In this document: one piece after another, positions 8,504 through 32,439 of the stretch | Layout of the letters: each line of letters opens with the position of its first letter | How positions within the stretch are numbered: position 1 is the first letter of the stretch | IMG/VR virus record: IMGVR_UViG_3300042090_002485 | Span: 32,001-96,000 of that record | From: a virus | Length of the DNA: 64,000 nt | Reading direction: 5' to 3' (one strand) | Notes under the pieces: model-generated | Told to the model about the DNA's origin: nothing | Databases searched by the model: none | The model's input: the letters and a program-made list of their open reading frames with translations, nothing else | Translations under genes and position numbers: made by a program

Positions 8504-10261
8504 TCAGTGGCGACTCGTGATGATGTTGCCGAGCTTCTCCGCGACGTCGCCGAGCGCGTCGGACGCGCGTACGTCGACGCCAACGCGCGCGCTGCGCGGC
8601 ACCGCGTTCTCGACGAGGTTGACGATCGACATCATCGACGCGGTCTTCGCCGACAGCTCGGTGATGTCGGGAATCGCGTAGCCCTCGTCGGTCTGCATCG
8701 TGCCGCCGGTGCCATGGTTGCCGATCGCGCGCGCGCCGAGCACGCCTGCGGTCGCGGCGAGAGGCAGGCGGAACTTGCGCAACCACGGGAACGCGCCGAG
8801 CGCCTTGTAGCCGCCGAGCGCAAGCGCTCCGCCGCCGAGTACCTGGTTGCGCATGCGCGCGCGAGTCACTGCATCCTGCGCGTCGATCGCGGCACCGCGC
8901 GTGGTCTCGTAGGGTCCGACGTGCAGCACGTCCGTGGTCGGCGCGGCGTCCTGCCGGAGGCCGACACCTTCGGGAACGAGACGCCGGTAGAGCATCTCGC
9001 CCGCGCCTGCACGCTTCTGCGCCGCGCGCGCGAAGCCGTCCATCAGCGCGGCTGCGACCTTGTGCGACTCGAGCACGCCGCTGTCCAGCAGTTCGTCCAG
9101 CAGGTCAGGGCGGTCGCCGAACAGCTCGAGTGCGAAGCGGCCGGCCGCCGCGAACTTCTCGAACTCGGCCTCCGTGTGCGGCATGCACGTGTTGCTGCAG
9201 CCCGCGAGCTTGCTCGTGGACAGGTACATGAACTCACGGTCGGTGAGCGTGACGCCGTTGGCCGCCGCTGCACTGAGCGACTCGCCGAGCGGGTAGCCGA
9301 GCAGGCCGGCCACCTGGATGCGCGGCGCGCCTGCGAGCTTGGGCGCGAGGTGGTCCTTCAGCTTGACGATGAACGAGCGTTCGTCGGGCGCGAGGTGGCT
9401 CGTCGCGATCGGCTCGCCCTGGATCACCTTGTCGATGTCGGAGAGCTTCTGCACCGCGGCGCCCTTGAGCGCGAGCGCGTCGGATTCCTCGCCGAGCAGC
9501 GCCGACAGGCGAATCTCGGGCGTCGCTTCGGCGACCTTCTTGAGCGTGTAGCCGGTGCGGTCAGCCGGGCGGAACACGCGGCTGATGTCGAAGAAGTCGG
9601 GTGATGGGTTGTGGACGTAGTCCTTGAAGCCGTTCGCGTCGACGACGTTCATCGCGAACTTGACGTGGTCGCAGTAGTCCGCACGCGTCGGCGCCTCGTT
9701 GCCGCAGCGAGCGCAGACGTCGTACTTGATGCGACAGCCCATGCTGACGGGCACGAACTCGCCGTCGGCCGCGCGCTTGACCCACTCGGGGTCCTTGGCG
9801 TCGTCGACCGAGACCAGCAGCTCGACCCGGTGCATGCGCGGGTTCCAGAACGCCTTCTTCACCACGCCCGAGGCCTTCGCCGGGTCGCGGTTGGCGTGGT
9901 GCTGGAACGCGTGTGCGGGGTTGGTCTCGAACGAGTGGTAGTGCTTGGTCAGCTCCTGGCCGGGCGCAACGAACCAGCGGCGGTCGGCGGAGGCGATCTT
10001 GCCGCGCGCGGGCACGGGGAACTCGGGAAAGCCGTCGCCGTTGCGGTTGGGGCCGTAGGTCTCCTCGCCGCCCATCGCGCACAGCAGCATCGCGGTCTTG
10101 CCGGCCTCGGGCGTGACGCTCTTGATGTAGTCGAGCGCCTCGGACGCGTGCTTGGTGATGCGGCTGGTGTCGACCGAGCGGCCGCCGTTCCATGGCAGGA
10201 TGATCTGGGCGGTCAGCTCGCCGGTCGGGAAGAACTCGGGCAGCTCGATGAGCTTCTTCAC
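8504..10261 (-). CDS. Prohead (maturation) protease with long C-terminal K-x-A/glycine-zipper extension (585 aa, GTG start)
   Basis: NRNGDGF, HAFQHH.N, RVELLV, VSMGC..KYDVCARC...CDH and FFDISRVFRPAD match the phage prohead serine protease pattern. GTGA overlap at 10258-10261. Confidence 0.7.
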   Translation of the reverse strand: MKKLIELPEFFPTGELTAQIILPWNGGRSVDTSRITKHASEALDYIKSVTPEAGKTAMLLCAMGGEETYGPNRNGDGFPEFPVPARGKIASADRRWFVAPGQELTKHYHSFETNPAHAFQHHANRDPAKASGVVKKAFWNPRMHRVELLVSVDDAKDPEWVKRAADGEFVPVSMGCRIKYDVCARCGNEAPTRADYCDHVKFAMNVVDANGFKDYVHNPSPDFFDISRVFRPADRTGYTLKKVAEATPEIRLSALLGEESDALALKGAAVQKLSDIDKVIQGEPIATSHLAPDERSFIVKLKDHLAPKLAGAPRIQVAGLLGYPLGESLSAAAANGVTLTDREFMYLSTSKLAGCSNTCMPHTEAEFEKFAAAGRFALELFGDRPDLLDELLDSGVLESHKVAAALMDGFARAAQKRAGAGEMLYRRLVPEGVGLRQDAAPTTDVLHVGPYETTRGAAIDAQDAVTRARMRNQVLGGGALALGGYKALGAFPWLRKFRLPLAATAGVLGARAIGNHGTGGTMQTDEGYAIPDITELSAKTASMMSIVNLVENAVPRSARVGVDVRASDALGDVAEKLGNIITSRH

Positions 10262-10809
10262 GGCAGCAGGCTCCGCAGCAGGCGCGCGCCGTCGCCGCGG
10301 TGGCGCACGAGCAGCACGAGCGCGGCGTGCTTGGCGTCCGGGTCGGACAGGGCGCACGCGGCCTCGAGGACATCGTCGACGAGGATCGCCGCCGCGAGCT
10401 TCTGTGGGGACGACAGTGCGCCGGCCATATCGTCGTTGGTCGCGGGGCTCGGGCGGCTGAGCTTGCTCTTGAGCAGCTCGCCGAGGCCCTGCATGCCGCC
10501 GACGCCGGCGGCCGTCATCAGCGCCTGGTTACGCGCGTCACGCAGCAGCTCGTGACCCTGGTTGCCGGCGTCGCGCGCGAGTAGATGGCCGACGCCGAGC
10601 GCAGGGATGCCCAGGCCGACACCCCAACCCAGGCCGCGCTGCAGCGCGGACATCGCTGCGGGGTCGATTGCAGCGCGCTTGAACATGCCGAACGCGGCGA
10701 AGTCAGCAAGCGCGGCGCGCTCGAGCAGCGTGGCCGACGGCGGGCGCGCCGACGCGATCTTCTCCGCGAGGAGGACCGACGTCTCGAGGGCCTGGTTGAG
10801 CGCGGTCAT
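10258..10809 (-). CDS. Inner-head K-x-A protein with Gly-rich hydrophobic helices
   Basis: KIAS, KRAA, KLAA and KHAA; GLGWGVGLGIPALGVG. Confidence 0.55.
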   Translation of the reverse strand: MTALNQALETSVLLAEKIASARPPSATLLERAALADFAAFGMFKRAAIDPAAMSALQRGLGWGVGLGIPALGVGHLLARDAGNQGHELLRDARNQALMTAAGVGGMQGLGELLKSKLSRPSPATNDDMAGALSSPQKLAAAILVDDVLEAACALSDPDAKHAALVLLVRHRGDGARLLRSLLP

Positions 10810-18432: not shown

Positions 18433-18645
18433 TCAGCCGAGCGCCTTGGCCTTGGGCGCGCCTGCAGCGATCGCAGGTGATGCAGGTGCTGGGGCAGCCG
18501 CTGTTGCAGGTGGTGCGTGGTTCGTCGCGGCTTGGCCGCTGAGCATCGGGTTGTAGCCCGCAGCGCCCTGCATCATGTTGGCGAGCTTGAAGTGCGCGAG
18601 GGCGCCTGCGCAGCCCGCCTCATACGAGTCCTTGAGAGTTTTCAT
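18433..18645 (-). CDS. Small protein with leader motif (70 aa)
   Basis: MKTLKDSYEAGCAGALAHFKLAN, then a Pro/Ala-rich tail. Confidence 0.6.
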   Translation of the reverse strand: MKTLKDSYEAGCAGALAHFKLANMMQGAAGYNPMLSGQAATNHAPPATAAAPAPASPAIAAGAPKAKALG

Positions 18646-18660
18646 GGCGTCTTGTCCCTG

Positions 18661-19101
18661 TTAGAAGAGGCGTCCGACTGCGTGTCCGAGGCCGCGACCT
18701 AGCGCCATCCCGATCGGCGCGACAGCGAGTCCGCCTGCTTGACCGCCGTACATCATGCCCGCGAGACCGCCGATGCCGCCGAGCAGGCGCGCCGCGCGGC
18801 CCTGCTCGGGGTCGCTGTGCATCATGCCGGGAAGCGCAGCCAGCGTGCCGAGGGTGCCGATGCGGCCCAGCGTCTGGCGAACAGGTTGGCCGGGCAGCGT
18901 CGGCCACAGCACCTGGCGCGGGTGCAGCGCGCCGCCCGCGCGGAACGCGGCGGGCCCCTGCACGAACGCCTCCGGTCCCATGCCGACCAGGCCGAGGTTG
19001 CGTGCCGCGCTGATCCCGGTGTCAATGAGGTTGGCCTCCTTGAAGCCGAAGCGCGCGCGGGCTGCTGCCGCGCCCGCTTCGTGTGCACTGGCGATGGTCA
19101 T
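18661..19101 (-). CDS. Glycine-zipper protein with leader motif (146 aa)
   Basis: MTIASAHEAGAAAARARFGFKEAN; LLGGIGGLAGMMYGG and IGMALGRGLGHAVG. Confidence 0.6.
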   Translation of the reverse strand: MTIASAHEAGAAAARARFGFKEANLIDTGISAARNLGLVGMGPEAFVQGPAAFRAGGALHPRQVLWPTLPGQPVRQTLGRIGTLGTLAALPGMMHSDPEQGRAARLLGGIGGLAGMMYGGQAGGLAVAPIGMALGRGLGHAVGRLF

Positions 19102-20879
19102 CAGTAGCCTCCGTCCTGGCCGAGACCGAACTCGGCACCCGCGACGTACGCCGGCACCGGCGAGGCGCCGTGCAGGTTCGACACGTCGCCGCGGTGGATG
19201 CCCGCGAGCAGAGACTCCTTGAGGTAGCGGTGCGCCAGGCGCGCCATCCAGTCGGGGTTCAGCAGCGGCGTGCGCGACGCGGCGCGCATGACGGGCACCG
19301 CGCGGGGCCCGGTCGTCGCGATCGGCACTGACGTCACGCCGTGGCGCGTGAGCTGCTCGACCATCGGCGGCGTGATCATCGTGCCCGCGGTGTGGTGAAG
19401 CACGGTGTCGGCCAGGGTCTCGCCGACCGCGTCAGCCGTCGGTACGCGGCGCTTGTCGGCGGCGAGCGCGGCGTGGAAGCGGTTGTAGTCGATGACGTCG
19501 CCCTTGAGGAACGCGTCGTCTGGTCCGGGGTCGACGACCTGGACGTAGTTGAGCACGCTCTTCGCGAGCGTCTCGAGGTGGCGCTTGTCGACCTCGGAGC
19601 CTGAACGCTTGTAGACGTCGGCGAGCGCGTCGACGAGGTAGCGCCGGCCCTCGCCGAGGCCCTTGTGCTCGACGACCTCGTCGGGCTTGGGCACGCCGTC
19701 AGAGAGCTGGTCGCCGGCGTAGACCGACTGGCCCGGCGCGACGAGGACACGGTGCTCGGGCGCCACGTAGTGTCGGGTGTCCCCGACGGTGACGTAGTGC
19801 CCGCCCTGTGGCGCGGCCTCGATGCCCTTGACCTCGCCATCGAGCCCGGCGAGCACTGCTTTGTGGGCGAACGACGACGGCACCTCGAGCAGCGAGCGCA
19901 CGCCCTTGATGCCCTCGAGTTTTTTCTCGTCGTCAGCGCGCGCGACGCGGCCGCCGTGCTTGGCGTTGAGGCTGAACTGCGTGAGCGGCTCGCTCAGCGC
20001 CTGCGCCGCGCGCACGCCGACGTTGGTGCCGATCGGGTGCAGACCACCCGCGGGCGCGAGACCCTGGCACTTCTGGCAGACGCCATGTGGCGCCTCGCAC
20101 GTCATTGGCGAGCGCACGGTGACGGTCTTGCCCTCGCGCGTCAGCTCCGACGCCAGTGCCGGCGTGACCAGGCGCCCGTCGGTGAGGTAGCGGTCGATGA
20201 CGTGCGGGTCCGACCCGAGCATCGCGATGCCGTTCTTGGTGCCGCAGTCTGGCGTCGTGATGAGCTGGTCGCCCATGTTGTTGACGAGGATCTTGGCGAG
20301 GTCGCCTGGCTCGACGACGGAGATGTTTGAGAGCACCGCGTTCACGCGCGCCTCGCCGCCGGCGACCCACGCATCGGCGGGCTTGAGCCCCTCGGAGAAG
20401 CTCCGGTCGATGAGCCACGGTACGACCTTGCCCTTCGAGTCGCGCACCATCACCGGCGCGCCGACCGCGCGCATCAGCTGCGCGGCGTTGCCGCGGCCGC
20501 CGGAGCGGACCATGTCGCCCATCGTGCCCGGGTGCTTCTTGGCGACGCCGAGCATCGCGTCGAAGCCCGCGGCGAGCGCCTTCTCCTTCTCGGCCGCGGT
20601 GCCGGCGCGGCGGAACGCGGCTGCGTGCGGGCCGAGCGCGGCGTCGCGCTCCTCGCGCTTGGGCGCGATGTCGTCCAGCCCGACCGAAATGCCGTCGAGC
20701 GTCGCGACCTCGTCGCCGACGCGCTTGAGCTTGGTGACAGCGTCGGGGTAGCCGCGCGGATCCTCCTTGGCGAGGCCGACGAGCAGCTCGTTGAGCGAGC
20801 CCTTCGTCAGCTCGCCGCGTCCGCGCCACTTCGGCGGCAGCGCGGAATCTACGAGGTGGCGACCGAGCGTGGTGGGCAC
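19101..20879 (-). CDS. rpoC: RNA polymerase beta' subunit, C-terminal half
   Basis: TTLGR start, GISVGLDDI, bridge helix (GLKPADAW...EPGDLAKILV), DCGT...RSPMTCEAPHGVCQKC zinc site, and trigger loop GVRAAQALSEPLTQFSLNAKHGG. Confidence 0.9.
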   Translation of the reverse strand: MPTTLGRHLVDSALPPKWRGRGELTKGSLNELLVGLAKEDPRGYPDAVTKLKRVGDEVATLDGISVGLDDIAPKREERDAALGPHAAAFRRAGTAAEKEKALAAGFDAMLGVAKKHPGTMGDMVRSGGRGNAAQLMRAVGAPVMVRDSKGKVVPWLIDRSFSEGLKPADAWVAGGEARVNAVLSNISVVEPGDLAKILVNNMGDQLITTPDCGTKNGIAMLGSDPHVIDRYLTDGRLVTPALASELTREGKTVTVRSPMTCEAPHGVCQKCQGLAPAGGLHPIGTNVGVRAAQALSEPLTQFSLNAKHGGRVARADDEKKLEGIKGVRSLLEVPSSFAHKAVLAGLDGEVKGIEAAPQGGHYVTVGDTRHYVAPEHRVLVAPGQSVYAGDQLSDGVPKPDEVVEHKGLGEGRRYLVDALADVYKRSGSEVDKRHLETLAKSVLNYVQVVDPGPDDAFLKGDVIDYNRFHAALAADKRRVPTADAVGETLADTVLHHTAGTMITPPMVEQLTRHGVTSVPIATTGPRAVPVMRAASRTPLLNPDWMARLAHRYLKESLLAGIHRGDVSNLHGASPVPAYVAGAEFGLGQDGGY

Positions 20880-20880
20880 G

Positions 20881-21273
20881 TCACATCCCGGGGTAGCCGC
20901 TGCCGCCGCCCATCATCATCTGTTGCTGACGGGCCTGTTGCTCGCGCTTTGCCTGGTTGTGCCGATGGAGCATGTAGAGCGCGCCGCCGGCGAGCAGCGA
21001 CGGCGCGAGCGTGCGCATGTTGCCGAGCGCGTTCTGGCGTGCCTCCATGCCGAGCGCGGGCGTTGCTGCGCCGCCGAGACCTTGGCGGAGGTTGCCGTAA
21101 AGGTCCTTCGCAGCGCCCATCTGTCCCTGTCCGAACGCCTTGGCACGGTCCATCAGGCCGGGCCCCGCGGGCGCGGGCGGCGCTGCGGGCGTCGACATGA
21201 ACGCGGGGTCGTTGGCGAGCTTGAAGAAGCGGATGGCGGCATCGCGGCCGCGCGCGGTGGAGTCGTTCAGCAT
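20881..21273 (-). CDS. Small protein with leader motif and hydrophobic helix (130 aa)
   Basis: MLNDSTARGRDAAIRFFKLAN; SLLAGGALYML. Confidence 0.6.
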   Translation of the reverse strand: MLNDSTARGRDAAIRFFKLANDPAFMSTPAAPPAPAGPGLMDRAKAFGQGQMGAAKDLYGNLRQGLGGAATPALGMEARQNALGNMRTLAPSLLAGGALYMLHRHNQAKREQQARQQQMMMGGGSGYPGM

Positions 21274-21734
21274 CAGAACACCGTTCCGATTGATGTGGGC
21301 TGGCCCATGTCGCTGAGCCGGTTCGCGGTATCACCTGCCGACAGGTTCGACGGCGCGCCCCACGAGGTGGAGCGGTCGAGCGGGTCGCGCGCAGACAGCT
21401 GGTCGCCGGGTGACAGCGGTGAGTCGAGGCCGCTGAGCGCGGCTGCGAGGTCGTCGGCCGAGCCTAGGCTCGCGCGTTTGGCGTTGCGCTCGTGCTCGGT
21501 CTTGAACGCCTCGTCCCAGCCGTGGAACTCGCGGCGCGGGATCTTCAGGCGGATCTCGGCGGAGGCTTCCTTGAAGCCGAACTGCTCGAGCGCGGCGGCG
21601 GCGCCGAGCACGAACGAGTGCTTGACCTTCTCGGGGAGCTTCTTGTCCTTGGGCGTCGCATCCTCGAACTCCTTGGCCAGTTCGGGGTGGCGGGCGTACA
21701 TGAACCGCCGCTGCGCCTGGGACTTGAAGGGCAC
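21273..21734 (-). CDS. Small protein: PFKSQAQRR mini-domain plus leader motif (153 aa, GTG start)
   Basis: MPFKSQAQRRFMYARHPELAKEFE...KLPEKVK, then HSFVLGAAAALEQFGFKEAS. The start is 5 nt after TATAAT. Confidence 0.6.
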   Translation of the reverse strand: MPFKSQAQRRFMYARHPELAKEFEDATPKDKKLPEKVKHSFVLGAAAALEQFGFKEASAEIRLKIPRREFHGWDEAFKTEHERNAKRASLGSADDLAAALSGLDSPLSPGDQLSARDPLDRSTSWGAPSNLSAGDTANRLSDMGQPTSIGTVF

Positions 21735-21738
21735 GACC

Positions 21739-21747
21739 AATTATAGG
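21739..21747 (-). promoter_or_regulatory. Putative late promoter CCTATAATT overlapping the endonuclease stop
   Basis: TATAAT, 5 nt, then GTG at 21734. Confidence 0.55.
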
Positions 21748-22376
21748 TGCTTGTGCTTGCGCCGTTGTTTCAAGCGCTGGTGCCAGGCGACCTGTCTTCG
21801 ATGTGCCGCTTCTGGGACGCGATGACCGGTGTCTCTCGTCAAGTACTGCGTCGCGCGGTCAGCCCATCCAGGCTGTTCGATATGACTTAGCGCTTGGTTG
21901 CATCCTCCACACAATGCACCACGTATCGCTCGTGTTTGATGGTCGTGGTCGACGTCAGTAGGTTTTTCATTACACAACGCACACGTGCCGTCTTGGCTCG
22001 TGATGATCGCGTCCCAGTGGCGCTGTGATATGCCCTTCGATGTAAAGCGTCCGTGTGCTTGTTTATCAGGTATGCAGGTCTTGCAATACTTCTGGTTTGG
22101 CGACGTTGGTACAAATGGGTCTGAGCATAGTTTGCAATTGCGCGGCGCGTGAACGCGTTTGCGTTCTTGTTCCTTTTCGACGCGTTTCGCTTCTTTCTTG
22201 GAGCGCCTTACGCCTTGGCGTCCTAGAAACGCTGCAATTGCTCCCTTGGGAATCTTGAACGCGCGGCTAAGTGTTAGCGGCGACTCCCCGTTCTTGTACT
22301 CACGCAGAACGCGACGGCCGATTTTGCTCCAGGCGATTTTGGTACCGTCACGCGCCGCGGATCTCGATCGGGTCAT
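21741..22376 (-). mobile_element. Free-standing endonuclease VII-type (His-Me finger) homing endonuclease
   Basis: CALCNEKPTDVDHDHQTRAIRGALCGGCNQAL, with an extra CKLC...CKTC. GC is clearly lower than the flanks, and the ORF overlaps the RNAP stop. Confidence 0.8.
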
Positions 22377-25300
22377 TCAGCGCGATCTCGCCGCGGTGAT
22401 AAGCCGCCATCGCCTCTTCCTGCGACGCGAAGTGCCGTGTCTTCTCGCGTGATGGCGCGCGGGTCGCGCGGTTAAGGCCCATCAGGCTCTCCATCTCGGG
22501 CGCGACGTTGAGCACGCCCGGCCGTTTGTCGGCGAAGATCATGCTCGACAGCGTCATCTTCTTGGCGTCTTCGACGCCGCCCGGCGTCACAGGCGCGTGG
22601 ATCTGCATCGCGTCGCCGTCGTAGTCGGCGTTGGTACCCTTCTCGGCGAATGGGTTGAGCTTGAGCGTCTTGCCGTCGACGACCTTGGGGTAGGCCGCGA
22701 TGATGTTGAAGCGGTGCAGCGATGGTGCGCGGTTGACCAGCACCGGACGTTCCTTGCTCTCGTTGAGCAGCTCCTGACGCGCGATCGGCGACTTGTCGTC
22801 GACCATCTTCTGCGCGTCAGTTGCGGCGTAGCCCCTGCGTACCAGCCGGCCAACGACGAACCGGCCGTACATTCGCCACAGCACACCCTCGGGAACTCCG
22901 ATTTCATCCATGTTGAGCGTAGGGTCAGGCGCAATCGTAGCACGGCCTGATACGTCTTGCTGTCTGCGCATTAATCTAGATTGGAAAAATCCACTACCTG
23001 GGCGTGTCCCCGTGATCGCCGCGATGTAGCCCTTGGCACCGCGCTTCTCCGCGCCGGGGCTGACCGGCTCGCCGACGCCAAACAGCGCGCCGACGGCGTC
23101 GTAGAGGTGGCGCCGCGGGTCAGCCAGCTCGGACTCGGGCAGCGTCTTCTTCGCCTCGCGCAGTTGGTCGCTGGCGAGGAACGCGTCCTTGTAGAGCAGG
23201 TTCGCGTCGCCGACCTGGAGGCGGCCGTCCTGCAGCGGCAGGATCGGGCGGATGACCGGCGGCGTCACCGGGACCTTCGTCAGGACGTAGGCGTTCGCCG
23301 GCTTGAGGTCGCGGTCCTTGAGTGCCTCGAGGTACTTGATCTGCTTGACGACGCCGTCGAGCGCGGGCCCGCGCGCGCGCCGCGACTCCTCGCGCAGCTC
23401 GGCGAGCTTGGCGTCCACGTCGATGTCGTCGAGCGCGCGCCGGAACCACTCGCCGCCGCGGCCGACACGCTCGGAGAACTCCTTCTGGGTCAGGCCGAGC
23501 AGGCGCCGCACCGGCTCCTCGAACACCGGGTTGACGATCGGCTCGTGCAGATCGACGTGCGACCACTTCGTGCCGGACATGCCGCCGGTGGTCGTCGGGT
23601 CGAACAGGCCGCCGGTCTCGGGGCGCAGGTCCTTGGCGCGAACGAGCTTGCTGGCGTCCTTGAGCGCGCCCGACGACATGCTCTTGATGTCGGCGTCGGT
23701 GAGCGGGCCGAGTGCGAGTCGCGAGCCGCTCTTGTCGACCTTGACGCCGGCCCCGGTGAGCATCGCGAGGAACTTGTCGTAGGCGAACGTGGTCTTGGGG
23801 GCGGGCGTGGGTAGGCCGAGCTGGACCGCGCGCCAGAACTCGTCACTGCGCTGACTCTTCACCGACGCGGCCTCGCGGAGGATGTTGCGGGCGTTGTGCG
23901 CGACCAATCCGTCAAATTCCATGCGGCCTAGCCCCTTGGCGCCGTCGTCGCCGCCGCGTGCTGGCTGCTGGTTGTAGTCGTAGCGCTCGGCGCCGTGCGC
24001 GGCCCAGTTGCTGTCCGTCGTCTTGAAGAGCTTGAGGATGTAGCTCTTGCCGACCACCACGTCGGGGATCTTCTTCCCTGTGATCGGATCGGACACGGTC
24101 TCCTTGTCCGTTAGCCCGTGTTCGGCGAGCAGCTTCTTGGCGTACTCTACATTGTCCCGTCCCGGGACGTACTGCGGTACGACGACGGGCTTGCCCGTCT
24201 TCTCGGCGACCTTGCCGAGCATCGTCTCTACGGTCTGCGCCGGGTTGATGCGCGATACGATGCCGGCCGACGTGAACAACAGGTCGACCGGTCGGCCGTC
24301 CTGGTCGTGGATCATCTGCTCGTCTGGGACGATCTTGGCGATGACCCCCTTGTTGCCGTAGCGGTTGCAGTTGCCGCACCAGGCGGGTTTGCCATTGCGG
24401 CGAACATACAGCACGTGCCCCGGCACGGTGAGGCAGTACACGGGTCGCGCGTAGTCTTCGATGAAGCCCTCTTCTTGCGCGTTCTGCTTCTTGGTGTGCC
24501 CGTGATTGATCTGCGGCTCGAGTTTCGTCGTCACGATGCTGACTTGGTAGAATGGACGCGCGTGGCTCGCCTTGCCCATGATCGTGACGGGGCCTCCCTC
24601 GTGGATCCGATCCACGTTGGCCGCCCAGCCCACGTGCAGGCAGAGGCGCTGGACGTCATCGGCTAGGCGTCGCGACACAGTGAAGTACGCGACGGGGCGC
24701 CCGCACGGCTTCGACGAGCCGTCTCCCCACATCAACCACTGGAACAGGATGCGCAACTGCGCTGGTGGCAGGTCGAAGACGTTGTCGGGGATGTACTTCT
24801 CGTGCGCGAGCCCGAATTGCGAGAAGTACGCGAGCAGTTGCTTGCCGTAGATTCTGATTTTCTCTGGTCCCGGATAGAACGCGATACCGGCGGCGCGCAG
24901 TGCGTCGATCAGCTGTTGTCGGTTGGGCTCGCGCGTCTGCGTGATGTCGATGCCGTACGTTCCGGGTTGGTCGAACGTATTTCCTTCGGAAAGGAATGCA
25001 CCGAGCAGCAGCAGGAACGTGTTCATCGGCATGCGCAGCGGTGGCAGCTCGCGGGTCCCGACACCGCCCTGCCCCGCGCGAACGGACATCGCGGGGAACT
25101 CGAATACGTCGACGTGCGTGCCCTGCCAGTTGCCGTTCTTCTTGAATTGGACGCGCTTGCCTGCAATCGCGTCGGCGCGCAGCAGCTCGAACTGATCGTG
25201 GTCGCGCCGCTTGACGTACATCTGGTGGTTGGCGGTGACTGCGAAGTCGACCTGTTGAGACCGCACCGCGTACATGCGCCCGCCGGTCGGGTAGGAGTGT

Positions 25301-27762
25301 GTGGCTTCTGGATTCGCGTAGGTGATTTGGTCGCCTTGAAGCGTGCAAACTTCGTCCTGTAGCGTCACGGCCGCGATCGGCTTCCACCCGCGACGCGTCA
25401 GAACTTCCGTCGCCTCGTCGAAGCAGAGCTTGTCCCCGATCTGCAGAGCCTCGGTCGTGCGCACCGACGCGGAGGCGCGATGCGGCGTCTTTGCGACGTC
25501 GACGACGTGCCCGGGCTGCTCGTGCGTCCAGCGCTCGACGACCTCCTCGAACGGCTTGACCAGCGACTTGGACAGCTTGCCGAGCAGCGCGGCGTCGCCG
25601 GTGACGCGGTTTGGGCGCACGCCGACGACGATTGGGTCGCCTTGGTGGAGAATCGCGCCGGGCTTCGCGACACCATCCTCGTCGAGGTTGGCGTACTGCG
25701 CGGCGGTGTACTTGTTGCCGAAGTAGGTCCGGTGCTTCTCGCGGCCGATTTCCGTCTCGCCGCTGCGCTCGACGCCGTGCTGGTACATGTGCTCGCTGAC
25801 GAGTTTGTCGGCGGCGCCCTGCGACACGACGATGCCATCGTTGGTGTTGAGGCCGCGGTAGGGCATGTACGCCACGCGCAGGTTGGTGCCGAGCGCGAGC
25901 GCACCGTCCTTGGTGAAGTTCGACTCGGCGAGCGGCTGGTCCTTCTCGACCTTGTCGCCGGCCTTCACCAGCAGCGTGTTGTGCAGCGCGGTCTTGGCCG
26001 CGAGCGGGAAGTCCTTGTCGTAGTGCAGCTTGTCGGGCGCCGCGGACGTCTTCTCGTCGTCGTGGCGGTCCGAGAGGTGGATGTAGTCGTCGTCGATCTT
26101 TGCCACGACGCCGGCGCGCCGCGCGGTCGGCACGACCTGCTTGACCATCTCGTGCTCGACCGAGACGCCGGGCTTCCACGACTCGACCTGCACGAGGGGC
26201 GCCTCGCGGTGGACGAGCGGCAGCGCCTGGCCCTGGTGCTTGCTGGCCATCAGCACGCGGTTGCCCTGGATGCCGTAGATGAGCGGCAGCAGGTTCGACG
26301 TCGGGCCGTAGAGGTCGGCGACGTGCTCGATCTGGTGCGTGACCTCGGACCCCGGGACCCTCTCGACCTTCCCTCGGTTCATCGCGTCGACCAGGCGACT
26401 CGCCTCGACGTTCTCGCCCGGGAACGCGACCACCGCCTTCTCCATGTCGGCGGCCTTGAGGAACGTCGACTTGCCCGTTCGCACGTCGCGGACGGGCGCG
26501 TAGAGGTTGCCCTTCTCGTCGCGGCGCGCGCCGATCGCGGCGCGCAGGTCGACGCCGATGGAGAAGCTCTCCGGTGACCGCGCCGGGTCGAGGATGCCCA
26601 TGTGGGTCGGGTGGACGTCGCGGGCCTCGAGTGGGATGGCGCGCTCCGACGGGATGGCGCCCTCGCCGAGCATCGTCACCTTCGACGCTTGGTCCATCAG
26701 CTCCATCGGGTTGATCTGCATCGGCACTGACGACAGCGACGTGCCGGTGAGCAGGCCGCGCACCGCGCCGGTGAACGGCCCGGCGGGCAGCGCCTTCTTG
26801 ACGTCGCCGCGCGCCGCGTCGAGCTTCCACCCCAGCTTGGTGCGCATCGCGCGGGCGCCGAGCTGGATGCGCTCCTTGACGAAGTCGTCCACCGAGTGGA
26901 GCGTCTTGAACGCGAGCGAGTCGCGGTCGTCGACGTCGGCCGCCGTCCGGTGGACGTCGAGCAGCTTCTTGCTGGCCGCGAGCATCGCGCTGGCCGACGC
27001 CTTGTCGTAGGGGTAGCCCAGCGTCTTGACGCAGACCTCTGGGTCCATGACGGTGTTGTCGAAGTAGTCGCGCAGCACGCGCGCCTTCTCGTCTTGCGTC
27101 GTCGCGGTCTGCTTCGCGGGGTGGACCAGCGTCGAGTACAGCTTGTCGACGTGTTTGTCCGGCGCCTTCCACGCGTCGCGGTTCATCTGTGCGATCTCGG
27201 AGCCCCACGCCGCCGCGATGTCCTGCTGCGGCACGCCGAGCGCGCGCAGCACGGGGTGCAGCGGAATCTTCGACGTGGTGTGTGAGGGCTGCATGTAGAG
27301 CAGGCCCTTCTCCGCGTCCATCGACACGCGGAAGTTCGCGCCGCGGGCGAGGTTGAACGTCGCTTCCAGCTCTTCGTTGCCGCGTCGGCGGACGTACGCG
27401 CCGGGCTTGGTACGCAGCTGGTTGGCGACCGAGTACTCCGTGCCGTCGACGATGAAGGTGTGGCGCGGCGTGAAGTACGGCAGCTGCATCAGCGTGAAGT
27501 CGCGCGCGGAGCTGACGGGCTGGCCCGCAGAGTCCTTGACGACGATGTCGCCACGGATGCGCTCGGACAGCGTGCGGCCCTCGAGCACGGCCGTCTTCTG
27601 CTCGCGCGATGAGAACTCGCGGGGCTCGACGCGGATGTTGGACAGCTCGAGCGTGTGCTTGCCCGCCTTGAGAGGGAACACCTGCGCGAGGGCCTCGGCC
27701 GCCTTCTTGCGGATGGCCTCGCGCCGGGTGGCAGCGTCTTCGATGACCGGGCGCAGGTTCAT
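22348..27762 (-). CDS. rpoBC: RNA polymerase beta fused to beta' N-terminal half (catalytic DPBB), containing an intein
   Basis: Beta motifs: LPYFTPRHTFIVDGTEYSVANQL, HPTHMGILDP, RVLMASKHQGQA, GDKL|CNRYGNKGVI, KGLGRMEFDGL. Beta' motifs: QDVSGRATIAP, VLVNRAPSLH, NADYDGD (22612-22632). Confidence 0.92.
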   Translation of the reverse strand: MNLRPVIEDAATRREAIRKKAAEALAQVFPLKAGKHTLELSNIRVEPREFSSREQKTAVLEGRTLSERIRGDIVVKDSAGQPVSSARDFTLMQLPYFTPRHTFIVDGTEYSVANQLRTKPGAYVRRRGNEELEATFNLARGANFRVSMDAEKGLLYMQPSHTTSKIPLHPVLRALGVPQQDIAAAWGSEIAQMNRDAWKAPDKHVDKLYSTLVHPAKQTATTQDEKARVLRDYFDNTVMDPEVCVKTLGYPYDKASASAMLAASKKLLDVHRTAADVDDRDSLAFKTLHSVDDFVKERIQLGARAMRTKLGWKLDAARGDVKKALPAGPFTGAVRGLLTGTSLSSVPMQINPMELMDQASKVTMLGEGAIPSERAIPLEARDVHPTHMGILDPARSPESFSIGVDLRAAIGARRDEKGNLYAPVRDVRTGKSTFLKAADMEKAVVAFPGENVEASRLVDAMNRGKVERVPGSEVTHQIEHVADLYGPTSNLLPLIYGIQGNRVLMASKHQGQALPLVHREAPLVQVESWKPGVSVEHEMVKQVVPTARRAGVVAKIDDDYIHLSDRHDDEKTSAAPDKLHYDKDFPLAAKTALHNTLLVKAGDKVEKDQPLAESNFTKDGALALGTNLRVAYMPYRGLNTNDGIVVSQGAADKLVSEHMYQHGVERSGETEIGREKHRTYFGNKYTAAQYANLDEDGVAKPGAILHQGDPIVVGVRPNRVTGDAALLGKLSKSLVKPFEEVVERWTHEQPGHVVDVAKTPHRASASVRTTEALQIGDKLCFDEATEVLTRRGWKPIAAVTLQDEVCTLQGDQITYANPEATHSYPTGGRMYAVRSQQVDFAVTANHQMYVKRRDHDQFELLRADAIAGKRVQFKKNGNWQGTHVDVFEFPAMSVRAGQGGVGTRELPPLRMPMNTFLLLLGAFLSEGNTFDQPGTYGIDITQTREPNRQQLIDALRAAGIAFYPGPEKIRIYGKQLLAYFSQFGLAHEKYIPDNVFDLPPAQLRILFQWLMWGDGSSKPCGRPVAYFTVSRRLADDVQRLCLHVGWAANVDRIHEGGPVTIMGKASHARPFYQVSIVTTKLEPQINHGHTKKQNAQEEGFIEDYARPVYCLTVPGHVLYVRRNGKPAWCGNCNRYGNKGVIAKIVPDEQMIHDQDGRPVDLLFTSAGIVSRINPAQTVETMLGKVAEKTGKPVVVPQYVPGRDNVEYAKKLLAEHGLTDKETVSDPITGKKIPDVVVGKSYILKLFKTTDSNWAAHGAERYDYNQQPARGGDDGAKGLGRMEFDGLVAHNARNILREAASVKSQRSDEFWRAVQLGLPTPAPKTTFAYDKFLAMLTGAGVKVDKSGSRLALGPLTDADIKSMSSGALKDASKLVRAKDLRPETGGLFDPTTTGGMSGTKWSHVDLHEPIVNPVFEEPVRRLLGLTQKEFSERVGRGGEWFRRALDDIDVDAKLAELREESRRARGPALDGVVKQIKYLEALKDRDLKPANAYVLTKVPVTPPVIRPILPLQDGRLQVGDANLLYKDAFLASDQLREAKKTLPESELADPRRHLYDAVGALFGVGEPVSPGAEKRGAKGYIAAITGTRPGSGFFQSRLMRRQQDVSGRATIAPDPTLNMDEIGVPEGVLWRMYGRFVVGRLVRRGYAATDAQKMVDDKSPIARQELLNESKERPVLVNRAPSLHRFNIIAAYPKVVDGKTLKLNPFAEKGTNADYDGDAMQIHAPVTPGGVEDAKKMTLSSMIFADKRPGVLNVAPEMESLMGLNRATRAPSREKTRHFASQEEAMAAYHRGEIALNDPIEIRGA
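24370..25425 (-). mobile_element. Intein (352 aa) with LAGLIDADG homing endonuclease in RNAP beta
   Basis: N-end CFDEATEVLTRRGW, block B TANH, LLGAFLSEGN and WLMWGDGS, C-end YCLTVP...CGN, +1 Cys. Removal restores GDKLCNRYGNKG. Confidence 0.9.
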
Positions 27763-27786
27763 GGTGTTTCTTGGTAGAAGAGGTTG

Positions 27787-28158
27787 CTACGGGATCCTTC
27801 GCGGCAGCACGGGCGCTTCAGCATCGCCCGCGTCCTGATCCGGCCTGGCCTGCGGGAGCTGGCGCGGCGTCAGGTAGCAGACCGCTACGATGAAGTCGCC
27901 GTCCTTGGTGAACGTCTTCTCCTCGTAGCGGATGGTCGCTTCGCCGCGCAGCACCTTGTTGAGCACGTCCTCGTACTCCCCGCGGTCACCTGGCAGCCCG
28001 AACAGCTGCACATGCGCGTCGAACTCCAGTTCGGGGCCCATCTTGCGCGGGTTGCCCTCGAACGCGACCCGACCAGGCCCGCCAAACATGCCAGCAACGT
28101 CGCTGGCTCCGCGCTGGGCCTTCGCGATGGACGCTACGAAGTCGTCTTCTTCAGCCAT
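27787..28158 (-). CDS. Hypothetical protein between portal and RNAP (123 aa)
   Basis: Normal composition; TAGGAT lies 6 nt upstream of the ATG. Confidence 0.55.
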   Translation of the reverse strand: MAEEDDFVASIAKAQRGASDVAGMFGGPGRVAFEGNPRKMGPELEFDAHVQLFGLPGDRGEYEDVLNKVLRGEATIRYEEKTFTKDGDFIVAVCYLTPRQLPQARPDQDAGDAEAPVLPRRIP

Positions 28159-28170
28159 CGTTGCATCCTA

Positions 28171-29952
28171 TCAGGCAGTAGCCGGGGGAGCACCGCCGCC
28201 CGATGGGTCTCCACCCTGCCGCATCGCCGTGATGGCGTCGTGGTTCTGGGCGGTGGTCTGCGCTTGGAGCCGTTCCTTGACCACGGCGTACATCACGAGG
28301 TCCTCGCTCTGCAGCGCATGCATCTGCGATTGACGTGAGCCGGGGTCAAGAGCTGCCATCTGCTGGACGATCTGATCGGCCTGCGCGATCACGGCCTGCT
28401 GGTCGTACGACAGGCCCTGCTGCCCCAGCTGCGCCTGCGAGCGCGCCTGCGTGGCCAGCGAATTCTGCCGCTTCATCAGCTCCTGCTGCAGCTCCTGCGC
28501 GGTGCGGGCGTCCTCGAGGGCCTCCTGCTTGCGCCACTTCCGCTCGTCCGCGGGGTCGACCTCGAAGGCCTCGCCGAGCGTCCGCTTGGACAGCCACGGC
28601 CCGGTCGTCGGGTCGGCCATGTTGAGCTGCAGCAGCAGGGCCTTCTGCTGGACGTCGTCGATGAACCGGAAGGGCGCGAGCGAGACCTGGACGGTGCCGC
28701 GACCGAGCTGCTTGGCGGACTTGTCCGTGATCCACTGCAGGAGGTCGTTGAGATCGCCGGTCTGGTGGACGAGCTGGTTCTCGAGCACGCGCAGCTGGAT
28801 GCCGGAGCCCATCGCGGAGAAGCCGCCGTAGATGAACTCCTTGGGCAGGCCCATGGCCGCGATGATGTTGTCCTCCGCAGCCTGGACCTCGCCGAGCGTC
28901 ATCAGTGCGCGCGCCTGGCCGCCGAGGTGCGTGACCTCGGCGGGGACCGGCGACCACATGATGTGGAGAGGGTCGCGGCGCCACTTCTTGACGCTGTCCT
29001 TCATCTGCGCCGACCACTTGGCGAGGTTGATGGTGACCAGCGGGTCGCCGTTGGGCGAGGACTGCTTGGGCGAGATGATGCGGAGCGGGACGATGTAGTC
29101 CAGCGCGATCGCCTCATTCGCCTTGCGCAGCACGGCTGCGTAGAAGAACAGCTTGATCGTCGACGCCAGCGGCGGGAAGCCCCACTGGGCCTCGATGCCA
29201 GCAGGTGCGTCCATACGCATGTGGAAGATCTGGCCCTCGGCGAACTTGAAGATCTTGTCCTCGCGGATGGCCTTCAAGAACTCCATCGGCATCGTGTCGA
29301 TGAGGTGCTTGTTGCCCTTCGCGCAGCGCTCCTTCAGCTCCTTGGGGATGGTGTAGAAGTACTCGCTGTGCCCGGTGATGGGGTTGTAGTCGATATCCAT
29401 CAGCTTCGGGTCCCAGCGGATCACCGAGAGCCGATCCTTGCGCGTGATCTTGCGGTCGACGATGTTCTTTTCGCTCGCGTCGACGCGCGTGCTGCATCCG
29501 CTGCACTCGTAGTTGAACGAGAGCTTCTTGAGCTTGAACTTGTAGTTGACCTGGTGGACGTTGGTTAGCCGCGCACACCGCGGGCACTTGAGGAAGCGCA
29601 CGAATGGCGCGTACATCGAGAAGAACGCATTGCCGTAGACGAACTTGTCGATGGCGGCTCGGATCAATGTCCGCTTCGTCTTCAAGACCTTGTCGTGCAG
29701 GTCCTCGAAGAACTGCTTGAGCGATTCGTTCTGGGTCTCGTAGATCAGGTTCGTGATCGGGTACGTGCAGAACTTCTGCAGCGCCGCGTAGATCTGCGCG
29801 CTGTTGAAGTAGAGGTACTCGCACAGCCGGAAGAGGTCCTTGAGCTTCCGCGGCGCGAACGCCGTGAGGAAATCGAAGAGCGGACTGCCCTGCGAAGCGC
29901 TGTTGTGCGACGCGAGTTCCGCGACGCCGGGGTCGAGCATTCCGTCAGGCAT
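28171..29952 (-). CDS. Portal protein (putative) with CxxC/CxxC insert
   Basis: 593 aa at the head of the head operon. Portal-like helical pattern (FFYAAVLRKANEAIA..., IIAAMGLPKEFIYG), CPRC...CSGC and a Gln-rich C-terminus. Confidence 0.6.
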   Translation of the reverse strand: MPDGMLDPGVAELASHNSASQGSPLFDFLTAFAPRKLKDLFRLCEYLYFNSAQIYAALQKFCTYPITNLIYETQNESLKQFFEDLHDKVLKTKRTLIRAAIDKFVYGNAFFSMYAPFVRFLKCPRCARLTNVHQVNYKFKLKKLSFNYECSGCSTRVDASEKNIVDRKITRKDRLSVIRWDPKLMDIDYNPITGHSEYFYTIPKELKERCAKGNKHLIDTMPMEFLKAIREDKIFKFAEGQIFHMRMDAPAGIEAQWGFPPLASTIKLFFYAAVLRKANEAIALDYIVPLRIISPKQSSPNGDPLVTINLAKWSAQMKDSVKKWRRDPLHIMWSPVPAEVTHLGGQARALMTLGEVQAAEDNIIAAMGLPKEFIYGGFSAMGSGIQLRVLENQLVHQTGDLNDLLQWITDKSAKQLGRGTVQVSLAPFRFIDDVQQKALLLQLNMADPTTGPWLSKRTLGEAFEVDPADERKWRKQEALEDARTAQELQQELMKRQNSLATQARSQAQLGQQGLSYDQQAVIAQADQIVQQMAALDPGSRQSQMHALQSEDLVMYAVVKERLQAQTTAQNHDAITAMRQGGDPSGGGAPPATA

Positions 29953-30004
29953 GGTTTACCTCGTAAACACGCAGGGCCTCTCCGTGATAGAAAGGCATCG
30001 TCAC

Positions 30005-31981
30005 ATGACGCGCACCAGGATGGACGTCCGCGTCGGCCGCGCGGGCAACGGCACCCCGGTCTTCATGATCCCGGGCCAGTCGCTCACCCACGGCCGCATC
30101 TTCGGCGCGACGTGGGACGAGCAGCGCGGGCTGTGGATGTACCCCGCGTTCTTCCCGGCGTCCGAGAAGGTGCTGGCCGACTTCGACGTGATCTCGCGCG
30201 ATGCCGAAGTGGTGTTGTCCCCCGTCGCCCAGCAACACATCGCTACCCTCGCCACGACCAAGGCCGCCCTCGCCGCGCGCGAGCTGCCGGCGTACTTCGA
30301 CTACATCACCAAGCCGTACGCTCACCAGGTCGATGGGCTCTGCCACGTCTTCCACAACATCCGCGCCGCGCTCTACTTCGACCCTGGTCTGGGCAAGTCG
30401 AAGATCGCCATCGACCTGGTGCGGCTGCTGCGGCTCGGCGGGATGCGAGGCTGCGCGCTCGTGCTCGGACCACGCGTCACCGTCGAGAACTGGGGTCGCG
30501 AGATCGATCGTCATTCCGACCGCCAGCTCAGGTGGGTCGCGCTCGTCGGCTCGCCGAAGGAGAAAGAGGCTGCGCTCGACCGCGCCGCGCAGGAGCGCGT
30601 CGACATCGTCTTGGCCACGTACGACACTGCCAAAAGGATAGTAGATTCGCTGGTTGCGCGACTACCCTACGAAGCGCTGATCCTGGACGAGAGCCACAAC
30701 GTCAAGGCGTGGACGTCCAACCGGACGACGGCTGCGTGGGAAATCGCGCAGAAGGCCCAGCGCCGGGTGCTCATGACCGGTTCGCCGACCGAGGGCGACC
30801 CACGGGACGTCTACGCGCCCTACAAGATCCTGGGTGACTGCTTCATGCCCGAGCCGCACCACAAGTTCGCGCGGATGGTGACCAAGCGCCCGTCGGAGCG
30901 GTCGCACGTCGTGCACGGTTTCAAGAACCTCGACCTGGTCAACGCCCGCACCACGTTCCTGAGCATGCGACGGACCAAGGAGGAGTGCCTGGACCTGCCT
31001 GCGCGGACCTTCGTTGACGTCGACTACCGCCTCACCGACCGCCAGACCGCGCTCTACAACCAGGTGGTCGAGGATATGGGCATCGACCCGGTGGCGTTGG
31101 CGAACTTCGCCGCGCTGCTGCGCGCCGGCGCGGTGCCCCCCGCGCTGCTTCCTGGGCAGGGGTTCCAGGGCATGACGATGCCGCACCGCGCGGTTGCGCT
31201 GCTCAAGCTGCTGCAGATCACGTCCGGCTTCATCATCAACAACATCGTCGACAACAGCTACTGCGACACGGTGAACGGCGGCAATCCTTGCGCGCATCGG
31301 CAGCACTGCGTCGACCGTGAGATTAAGCCGCGCACGTCGAAGTGCCTCGTTGACAAGACGCCGTGGCCGACCGAGACGATCTACACTGACGCCAACCCCA
31401 AGCACGACGCGATCGCGGAGCTGATCGACAGCATCATCCAGGTCCCGGACGCCAAGGTCATCGTGTGGTGTGTGTTTCACCCCGAGATGGACTCAATCGC
31501 GCAGCGTGTGCAGGACGCGGGCATCGGGCACGTCCGAGTCGACGGGACGACCGCCAAACCGATGAAGGTGATCGATCGGTTCAACGACGATCCGTCCGTT
31601 CGGGTGTACATCGGGCAGGTCGCCTCCGGTGTCGGCGTGAACTTGGTGTCAGCCGCCTACGTCATCTACAGCTCGCTGCCGTACGCGCTCACGGCCTACT
31701 TGCAGAGCCTGGACCGGAACTACAGGATCGGGCAGGACAAGCCCGTCACGGTCTACCGCATGATCGGCTTGCAGACGCTGGAGGCCGCGGTCGCGTTCCT
31801 GCTAGACCACAAGGTCGATGTGGATGCGCTGATGACCAACAAGATCGAGTGCGGACTGTGCCCTCACGTCCTGCGCTGCCAAGCCGAGCGCATCGAGCCG
31901 TTCGAGACCGGCTGCATCCATCCCAAGACGATGAAGCGCCCCGTGCTGCGGGCCCACTCGATCCACCAGAACGGAGGCTGA
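30005..31981 (+). CDS. SNF2-like SF2 helicase with Cys-rich inserts
   Basis: YAHQVDG, FDPGLGKS, LILDESH, MTGSP, VRVDG, GVGVNL and SLDRNYRIGQ. Start reassigned to MTRTRMD. Confidence 0.85.
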   Translation: MTRTRMDVRVGRAGNGTPVFMIPGQSLTHGRIFGATWDEQRGLWMYPAFFPASEKVLADFDVISRDAEVVLSPVAQQHIATLATTKAALAARELPAYFDYITKPYAHQVDGLCHVFHNIRAALYFDPGLGKSKIAIDLVRLLRLGGMRGCALVLGPRVTVENWGREIDRHSDRQLRWVALVGSPKEKEAALDRAAQERVDIVLATYDTAKRIVDSLVARLPYEALILDESHNVKAWTSNRTTAAWEIAQKAQRRVLMTGSPTEGDPRDVYAPYKILGDCFMPEPHHKFARMVTKRPSERSHVVHGFKNLDLVNARTTFLSMRRTKEECLDLPARTFVDVDYRLTDRQTALYNQVVEDMGIDPVALANFAALLRAGAVPPALLPGQGFQGMTMPHRAVALLKLLQITSGFIINNIVDNSYCDTVNGGNPCAHRQHCVDREIKPRTSKCLVDKTPWPTETIYTDANPKHDAIAELIDSIIQVPDAKVIVWCVFHPEMDSIAQRVQDAGIGHVRVDGTTAKPMKVIDRFNDDPSVRVYIGQVASGVGVNLVSAAYVIYSSLPYALTAYLQSLDRNYRIGQDKPVTVYRMIGLQTLEAAVAFLLDHKVDVDALMTNKIECGLCPHVLRCQAERIEPFETGCIHPKTMKRPVLRAHSIHQNGG

Positions 31982-31983
31982 CC

Positions 31984-32439
31984 ATGAAGATCGCCATCAC
32001 CTACGACAACGCTGACATCACTCGGCTCATCCGGCAGGACCTGGCACGCCAGGGTATTCGGGCCGCCGATTGCGCGGTGAGGTACAGCAAGGGCGTCGCG
32101 CATGTCGACGTAGAGGTGCAGCCAGATGACGACGTAGCCGCCGCGCCGCCAGTCGTTGTCGCGCCGTCGATCGAGCAGGCCGCCGCCCTGCCGCCGCGCA
32201 ACCTCGACGTCAACCTCGAGCGCGAACAGGAGCGCGAACAGGAGCGCGAGAGGATGCGTGAGCGGGAGGCCCGCCGCCAGCCGAACCTCGAGGCTATCGA
32301 GGGCGGCAACAACCCGGCTGACTTCTCGGATGTGATGCGCGCCTCGCGAAGCATCGAGCGTCAGGGCGGCGGGATGTTCCCGCCGAGCCAGCGCCAGTTG
32401 ATGGATGGCGAGTCCTTTGACCCGCCGGGAGACCGCTGA
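31984..32439 (+). CDS. Hypothetical protein (151 aa)
   Basis: MKIAITYDNAD..., with a GGAGG SD. Confidence 0.55.
   Translation: MKIAITYDNADITRLIRQDLARQGIRAADCAVRYSKGVAHVDVEVQPDDDVAAAPPVVVAPSIEQAAALPPRNLDVNLEREQEREQERERMREREARRQPNLEAIEGGNNPADFSDVMRASRSIERQGGGMFPPSQRQLMDGESFDPPGDR

Follow-up and report, generated by a model that had tools for sequence, protein, structure and literature searches.

A two-chain RNA polymerase with fused β and β' parts encoded among the head genes of a tailed phage related to Salmonella phage Arash

The subject of this study is the multisubunit RNA polymerase (RNAP) encoded in a 64,000-nucleotide stretch of viral DNA, positions 32,001 to 96,000 of the IMG/VR virus record IMGVR_UViG_3300042090_002485 (the window). 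The record is a linear contig of 145,212 bp (G000), 77% complete by CheckV, with a G+C content of 62-72% measured per 2 kb, and the RNAP-related genes of interest all lie on its minus strand. The core of the enzyme consists of two chains. Chain 1 (β::β'N) is all of β joined to a β' portion corresponding to residues ~19-550 in Escherichia coli numbering and holds both catalytic barrels, while chain 2 (β'C) supplies the bridge helix, the trigger loop, the second zinc site and the C-terminal clamp. A very large phage clade, which includes the cultured Salmonella phage Arash, has this layout as its standard form, and the window is an ordinary member of it. For the window phage all data are the sequence alone, and virion data are taken from Arash only. 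On balance, we consider it probable that the window encodes the single RNAP of an Arash-like tailed phage of ~190 kb, with a two-chain core that was first fused and then split, that is directed by sigma (σ) factors and that is packed into the virion.

An earlier, sequence-only reading of the window had reported a single open reading frame (ORF) running from β through the catalytic loop NADYDGD of β'. We confirmed this ORF, in which the Pfam domains Rpb2_3 and Rpb2_6 (β) are followed by a LAGLIDADG domain and then by Rpb1_1 and Rpb1_2 (β'); chain 1 ends with ...IEIRGA, 87 residues beyond NADYDGD. For comparison of the junction and of the zinc-domain region, E. coli rpoB/rpoC and eight clade members were aligned by MAFFT. 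β is complete in chain 1 and its C-terminus lies at amino acid (aa) 1343 (nucleotide (nt) 23734), so that the junction had been placed exactly when it was put near 23730. After the linker KSGS the β' portion sets in at a position matching E. coli β' residue 19, and aa 1430-1801 match E. coli β' 177-550, comprising the clamp helices and the catalytic loop. A single-sequence search of the junction piece (aa 1255-1440) against the PDB gave only a weak match to the β C-terminal part (E 0.45). The alignment also bears out the proposed deletion of the N-terminal zinc-binding domain of β', as a gap of 32 residues lies exactly opposite E. coli Y68-R99, the segment with C70, C72, C85 and C88, in every clade member aligned, relatives with the whole enzyme in one chain included. 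The four-Cys domain is thus absent clade-wide in the alignment with E. coli. Over its whole length, end to end, chain 1 aligns with Arash gp206.

The rest of β' restarts, as had been noticed, at TTLGR about 1.47 kb downstream and behind three other genes: chain 2 starts 1468 nt after the stop of chain 1, with three ORFs in between. It begins with (V/M)PTTLGR and aligns to bacterial β' from ~614-665 through ~1190 as well as to E. coli 1185-1321, with bridge helix, trigger loop and second zinc site all aligning within its 592 aa. The second zinc site is kept, and its four Cys are the sole Cys residues of the chain. Once the intein is subtracted, chains 1 and 2 add up to 2044 aa; the enzyme is slimmed down, and no domain has been added to it. 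The earlier observation of this architecture was correct in every detail checked.

Directly behind chain 1, and overlapping its end by 29 nt, lies the gene for a free-standing homing endonuclease of the endonuclease VII (EndoVII)/HNH type, whose G+C content at third codon positions (GC3) is 0.49 as compared to 0.86-0.95 for its neighbours. The same slot contains another EndoVII gene in relative L015, a free-standing LAGLIDADG gene in L010 and no endonuclease gene in L009 and L014. As its GC3 is atypical and the gene is missing from L009 and L014, the endonuclease in the slot is recent and the split is old; this freshly gained gene and the intein of chain 1 are the window's own additions to the layout. 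The fission itself may have been brought about by a homing endonuclease in the first place. The other two ORFs of the gap are conserved in relatives. One of them, the 155-aa ORF (21273-21740(-)), shares a motif near its N-terminus, GAAAA-x3-FGFKEA, with a 146-aa ORF located just after β'C (18661-19101(-)). A strict pattern search of the window found the motif nowhere beyond these two ORFs, and it may be the 'address tag' noted earlier.

The presence of a homing endonuclease gene at the 5' end of the gap, together with the exact colinearity of one-chain relatives across the break, would also be compatible with the 1.47-kb gap being an intervening sequence, i.e. either a split intein or an intron carrying a homing endonuclease, the working enzyme then being one β::β' chain. 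We regard this as very improbable, since the gap holds the two conserved protein genes, both with host-like GC3, the corresponding gap in Arash measures 4.8 kb and is filled mostly with genes on the opposite strand, and neither chain end has extra residues fit for split-intein halves. A search with Rfam, group I and II introns included, gave no match in 18500-28500 at E <= 1, and the intron reading of the gap was rejected on this ground.

The closest system is that of Arash (OQ632216; PMC10585845), where gp206 (1525 aa, β::β'N) and gp216 (606 aa, β'C) have the same layout as the window. Arash and the Vibrio phages D69, D148 and D181 are the nearest cultured relatives, sharing the junction, the zinc-domain gap, the stop point, the portal gene upstream and the σ genes. 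gp206 is 33-38% identical to the window fusion with the same order of Pfam domains, and the Arash/Vibrio system overall is 30-38% identical; a megablast search with the 8.7-kb RNAP stretch against phage records gave no match. Like these phages, the window has one ORF that stops before TTxGR, a separate β'C of about 590-610 aa and the portal gene directly upstream. Arash differs in having no intein and nine genes in its gap. D181 (L002 2755-8269) has the same β-β'N junction and the same split of β', with β further cut by a homing endonuclease gene. It is thus a three-chain variant, composed of a 514-aa gene for the β N-terminal part, a 1006-aa βC::β'N gene and β'C, where the annotated homing endonuclease and two tiny ORFs separate the first two. 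The Arash paper names the two chains β and β' and mentions neither the fusion nor the split nor the missing zinc domain (PMC10585845).

The layout is not, as might have been thought from the window, a peculiarity of this phage. It occurs in Arash, D181 and seven IMG/VR contigs, with β and β'N in one frame in all seven IMG/VR loci and β'C 880-2790 nt downstream; across all nine loci β'C lies 750-4800 nt from β::β'N. A portal homologue is located upstream of β::β'N in each of the nine, and the gene order after β'C is kept in the nearer relatives where the locus extends far enough. Homologues of β'C form 924 clusters at 90% identity; nearly all of the 120 homologues listed are 585-608 aa long, on contigs of up to 204 kb. 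Next, aa 1138-1804 served as query for an exhaustive HMMER search through 1.84 billion representatives, and the best 150 matches (50%-identity clusters) were examined. In every long-enough protein among these 150 the β C-terminus is contiguous with β'N, and among the 143 nearest clusters that were classed 98 are of the two-chain and 45 of the one-chain form. One-chain forms have ~2000-2090 aa, more where inteins are present, and two-chain forms stop where the window protein stops. We give practically no credence to the idea that the split reflects gene breakage or faulty assembly and has no function, for which nothing speaks other than the bare fact of gene interruption: the same boundaries recur in ~100 clusters (50% identity) as well as in cultured phages, both chains keep their catalytic motifs and host-like codon use, and both Arash chains have been detected as proteins (PMC10585845). 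The conservation of the boundaries refutes it.

Across the break, ...IEIRGA of chain 1 and VPTTLGR of chain 2 align with the contiguous ...VRVAGK-NTSAGR... of the one-chain forms, exactly colinear. The split point corresponds to a variable surface loop, as E. coli has an extra hairpin of 16 residues there. The one-chain relatives P0174, P0182, P0246 and P0255 have the same junction and zinc-domain gap and are 37-43% identical, with β'C in the same chain. Trees of this part of the enzyme, rooted on E. coli and Staphylococcus aureus, were calculated with FastTree (148 rows) and with IQ-TREE under LG+C20 (48 rows). Both contain a basal grade of one-chain forms and unite the two-chain forms, with a single exception, in one clade (support 100 in FastTree; Shimodaira-Hasegawa-like approximate likelihood ratio test in IQ-TREE 99). 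Fusion followed by fission is favoured by these trees and by parsimony, as it requires two events, compared to three for the reverse order. The sequences thus suggest a single fission of a one-chain β::β' ancestor, which is favoured, though unproven. In the genomic contexts of the four one-chain relatives no portal homologue or annotation was found beside the RNAP gene; the notion that the move into the head module coincided with the split was dropped, four such contexts being too few.

The LAGLIDADG domain of chain 1 is part of an intein in the β active site. In the intein-free relatives L010 and L014 the equivalents of aa 780 and aa 1132 are joined straight to each other. The intein matches LAGLIDADG_3 in Pfam at 2e-4 and has a GC3 of 0.82, compared to 0.88-0.95 in the flanking exteins. 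Its removal restores the active-site motif of β (GDK...RHGNKG type), and as the intein interrupts this motif, the enzyme can be active only after splicing. The polymerase family is rich in inteins, which occupy several sites in many representatives among the best 150: at β ~aa 400 in L009 (L009:4931-5989), P0138, P0142 and others, and in β'N just past NADxDGD, near aa 1719 of the window protein, in P0124, P0135, P0181 and others. The β'C protein P0010 (976 aa) also has a LAGLIDADG domain. Elsewhere in the window, the large terminase (TerL) gene (47052-49769(-), 905 aa) has two blocks that match Arash TerL with ~360 aa between them; this insert matches phrog_85, the same PHROG family as the RNAP intein, and is therefore probably a second intein.

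Among other phages, the RNAPs of phiKZ and AR9 resemble the window enzyme in being cellular-type two-barrel enzymes without α and ω, with one of two sets being virion-borne (PMC7598289, PMC9209446). They differ in that β is split, nothing is fused, two paralogous sets exist and a σ70-family factor is missing, specificity being conferred by gp68 or gp226 of these phages; in the window, β is whole, there is a single set, and a σ factor is present. The statement in the sequence-only reading that phiKZ/AR9 RNAPs are split differently is accurate as far as β is concerned, but their β' is broken in the same post-barrel region, just after the catalytic barrel, at a position said to coincide with the cyanobacterial split (PMC7598289). 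The region of the split is therefore not unique. In the γ and β' subunits of cyanobacteria and plastids, too, β' is divided after the catalytic barrel. Their γ extends ~65 residues beyond the end of chain 1 and includes TTxGR, β is separate, and α and ω are present, whereas in the window the break lies before TTLGR and β is fused; the point made earlier, that the cyanobacterial split falls after and not before this motif, holds. A fusion of the β C-terminus to the β' N-terminus in one frame is found in rpoB-rpoC of Helicobacter and Wolbachia, which encode full-length cellular enzymes with α, ω and the zinc domain and with an unsplit β'.

Metagenomic tailed phages with deep-branching RNAPs, which the sequence-only reading had mentioned, do exist in the form of the mReC enzymes, bacterial-type β and β' subunits of uncultured tailed phages that branch apart from the cellular enzymes (PMC7481178). 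In the part of Supplementary Data 2 covered here, mReC β has ~900-1520 aa and β' ~900-1390 aa, encoded by separate, usually neighbouring genes (PMC7481178). As far as these data go, the window enzyme is set apart from mReC by its gene layout, there being no separate full-length β and β' genes in the window. The main text of the mReC paper reports no fusion or split of these enzymes, and none of the sample numbers of the related contigs appears in its tables (PMC7481178). Only the phiKZ/AR9 type is covered in reviews on jumbo phages and their RNAPs (PMC7598289), and in the full-text literature found, subscription-only papers lying outside the search, the present architecture is undescribed. Two further cultured phages have more distant RNAP genes in other layouts: Escherichia phage IME392 (L020) has pieces of ~500 aa annotated as β' and β, and Rhizobium phage RHph_TM21B (L021) has a separate full-length β' of 1127 aa. 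The two could serve as closer outgroups.

The RNAP genes had been located between the portal and protease genes, and the similarity of these neighbours to Arash gp204 and gp222 confirms it. The conserved ORF between portal and RNAP has no match in Pfam or PHROG. The window further encodes a σ70-family factor. Each of the four relatives searched has a counterpart of it, which in Arash is gp196; BLASTP of the window σ against the second Arash σ, gp10, gave no similarity. Outside the window, ~6.6 kb past its end, lies a second σ-like gene (G000:C1:92047-92730(-)) with 32% identity to Arash gp10 (E 4e-33). A gene for an SNF2-family helicase (29840-31981(+), 713 aa) is oriented divergently to the portal gene; the helicase is weakly similar (28%) to the Arash helicase gp217 and may accompany the polymerase in the manner of RapA. 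A k-mer search of 69 intergenic stretches for a shared promoter motif gave a weak candidate only, which was left unused: the 7-mer GTTTATC, a possible regulatory motif, occurs in 7 intergenic stretches with 15 copies genome-wide (5/9 for GATAAACA). The coordinates of all features are compiled in Table 1.

Table 1. Features of the RNAP locus and its surroundings, in window coordinates
Feature	Position	Strand	Details
Prohead protease gene, far side of the head-gene block	8504..10357	(-)	37% identity to Arash gp222; phrog_18299, head maturation protease, 5e-8
β'C gene (chain 2)	19101..20879	(-)	592 aa; Pfam Rpb1_5; bridge helix, second zinc site, trigger loop, C-terminal clamp
Conserved ORF, 130 aa	20881..21273	(-)	49-69% identical in L010, L014; no family match; stop 1 nt before β'C start
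Conserved ORF, 155 aa	21273..21740	(-)	52-64% identical in L009, L010, L014; no family match
EndoVII/HNH-type free-standing homing endonuclease gene, 211 aa	21741..22376	(-)	Pfam PF02945 2e-14; in the split slot
β::β'N fusion gene (chain 1)	22348..27762	(-)	1804 aa; 1452 aa without intein; Pfam Rpb2_3, Rpb2_6, Rpb1_1, Rpb1_2
Catalytic Mg-binding loop NADYDGD	22612..22632	(-)	aa 1711-1717
Site of the missing β' N-terminal zinc-binding domain, between GGMSG and TKW	23563..23586	(-)	32-column alignment gap
β/β' junction, four-residue linker KSGS	23722..23733	(-)	MAFFT alignment (see text)
LAGLIDADG intein, 352 aa	24370..25425	(-)	aa 780-1131, +1 Cys at aa 1132; inside β motif GDK...NRxGNKG
Conserved ORF between portal and RNAP genes, 123 aa	27787..28158	(-)	counterparts in L009, L010, L014, L015 at the equivalent position, 35-53% identical
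Portal gene, directly upstream of the RNAP genes	28171..29952	(-)	29.5% identity to Arash gp204 over 593 aa, E 3e-85
σ70-family factor gene, 362 aa	35245..36333	(-)	Pfam Sigma70_r2 and Sigma70_r4; phrog_351 3e-35

The sequence-only reading had found neither α nor ω in the window. This result stands and extends to the whole 145-kb contig, and for α (PF01000, PF01193) also to four relatives, in none of which a match was obtained, namely a 184.9-kb genome with terminal repeats (100% complete), one that is 84% complete, Arash and D181. For ω (PF01192) this contig was the only one searched, and its best score was 13 bits with a cut-off of 26. Controls of the α/ω profile searches were positive in 14 of 14 genomes; the absence of α is judged by Pfam profiles alone. 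Each genome examined has one RNAP set only. The further claim that the enzyme is independent of α fits these data, the phage having no α or ω homologue and a single RNAP set. Gene absence says nothing on the use of host proteins, and artificially fused E. coli β-β' still assembles with α, so that the phage core might need the host α dimer, perhaps also ω, for assembly, the genes simply not being carried. We consider this improbable. A packaged enzyme that acts on entry would need host α to be packed with it or acquired after ejection, and the non-virion RNAPs of AR9 and phiKZ are active without α (PMC7598289, PMC9209446). In the case of AR9 this was established with the recombinant enzyme, the β' split of which lies near the would-be α-II interface (PMC9209446).

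The evidence for carriage of the enzyme in the virus particle comes from mass spectrometry of Arash virions. gp206 (β::β'N) was detected there with 128 unique peptides and 3516 spectra, the most of any protein, and gp216 (β'C), the fifth most-detected protein, with 40 unique peptides and 1210 spectra (PMC10585845). The helicase gp217, encoded right after β'C, gave 38 unique peptides and 1148 spectra, and the σ factor gp10 24 and 467, as compared to 32 and 877 for the portal protein gp204 and 30 and 1333 for the major capsid protein gp226 (PMC10585845). A different explanation, to which we assign a minor but real chance, is that the polymerase is not a virion component: together with the phage σ factors it would transcribe middle and late genes, host RNAP would transcribe the early ones, and both the location among head genes and the Arash signal would be incidental, the latter due to carry-over. 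The Arash preparation indeed contained 116 proteins, including metabolic enzymes such as ribonucleotide reductases and ligases, and the authors allow for carry-over of abundant proteins (PMC10585845). Moreover, as there is one RNAP set only, the same enzyme must serve after infection, and the contexts of the four one-chain relatives showed no portal homologue or annotation beside the RNAP gene. Carry-over has to be set against the number of spectra, which for gp206 is 2.6 times that of the major capsid protein and for gp216 and gp217 about that of the portal protein, and an incidental location against the synteny of portal and RNAP genes, on the same strand as the head genes, in 9 of 9 two-chain loci. 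The virion-packaged RNAP proposed in the sequence-only reading is therefore backed by the abundance of its homologues in Arash particles, while for the window phage itself packaging is transferred from a relative in which carry-over is possible. We rate it as likely only, because the Arash preparation held many enzymes and its authors allow for carry-over.

Several points weigh against the overall interpretation of a fused-then-split, σ-directed and virion-packed RNAP. Apart from the composition of the Arash preparation, packaging is carried over by analogy from a relative that is only 33-38% identical, and gp196, the counterpart of the window σ, is absent from the Arash virion table (PMC10585845). 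A divergent α analogue may exist or host α may be used, and the contig is only 77% complete. Finally, the one-chain forms P0181 and P0234 are located at the base of the two-chain clade, and in an approximately unbiased test under LG+G4 a tree with the one-chain forms as a single group was not rejected (p 0.33).

If the interpretation is correct, the covalent link between β and β' would replace the platform formed by the α dimer by bringing the two halves of the enzyme together, and promoters would be read by the phage σ70-family factors. The ancestor would have had one β::β' chain of ~2050 aa, which underwent one clean fission at the variable surface loop past the catalytic barrel; no residues would have been lost, and the gap would then have become a landing site for homing endonucleases and small genes of the head module. 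The RNAP genes would be expressed together with the head genes, and the enzyme would be packed in the capsid and ejected with the DNA, whereupon it would start early transcription without host RNAP. We advance a broader version more tentatively, as one that could well be wrong. A large, mostly uncultured clade of tailed phages of ~150-200 kb may possess the most reduced cellular-type RNAP known, with β and β' joined, one fission at a loop prone to homing endonucleases, no α, ω or zinc domain and a σ70 factor of its own; delivered by the virion, possibly together with σ and the SNF2 helicase, it may carry out the whole transcription programme without host RNAP.

To our knowledge, all cellular multisubunit RNAPs need an α-type platform, the exceptions studied so far being confined to phiKZ and AR9, whose enzymes consist of four or five pieces. 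The enzyme described here has the opposite design, with one or two chains, a presumed σ dependence and ~2040 residues in all, and its layout extends across hundreds of phage lineages. As at least two cultured groups (Arash and Vibrio D69/D148/D181) possess it, the design is directly testable. It is a natural experiment on whether a covalent β-β' link can replace α and a test of what the zinc domain of β' is needed for, and it marks where β' tolerates fission, phiKZ-like phages and cyanobacteria being split in the same post-barrel region. The clade also exemplifies how a gene split at a site of homing endonucleases can reach fixation clade-wide, and the enzyme is possibly a compact σ-type polymerase of practical use. 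Annotators should avoid plain 'β' as a label for proteins resembling gp206. If the proposed role of the β-β' fusion is true, the covalent link would be a second solution, besides the α platform, to the assembly of a two-barrel polymerase.

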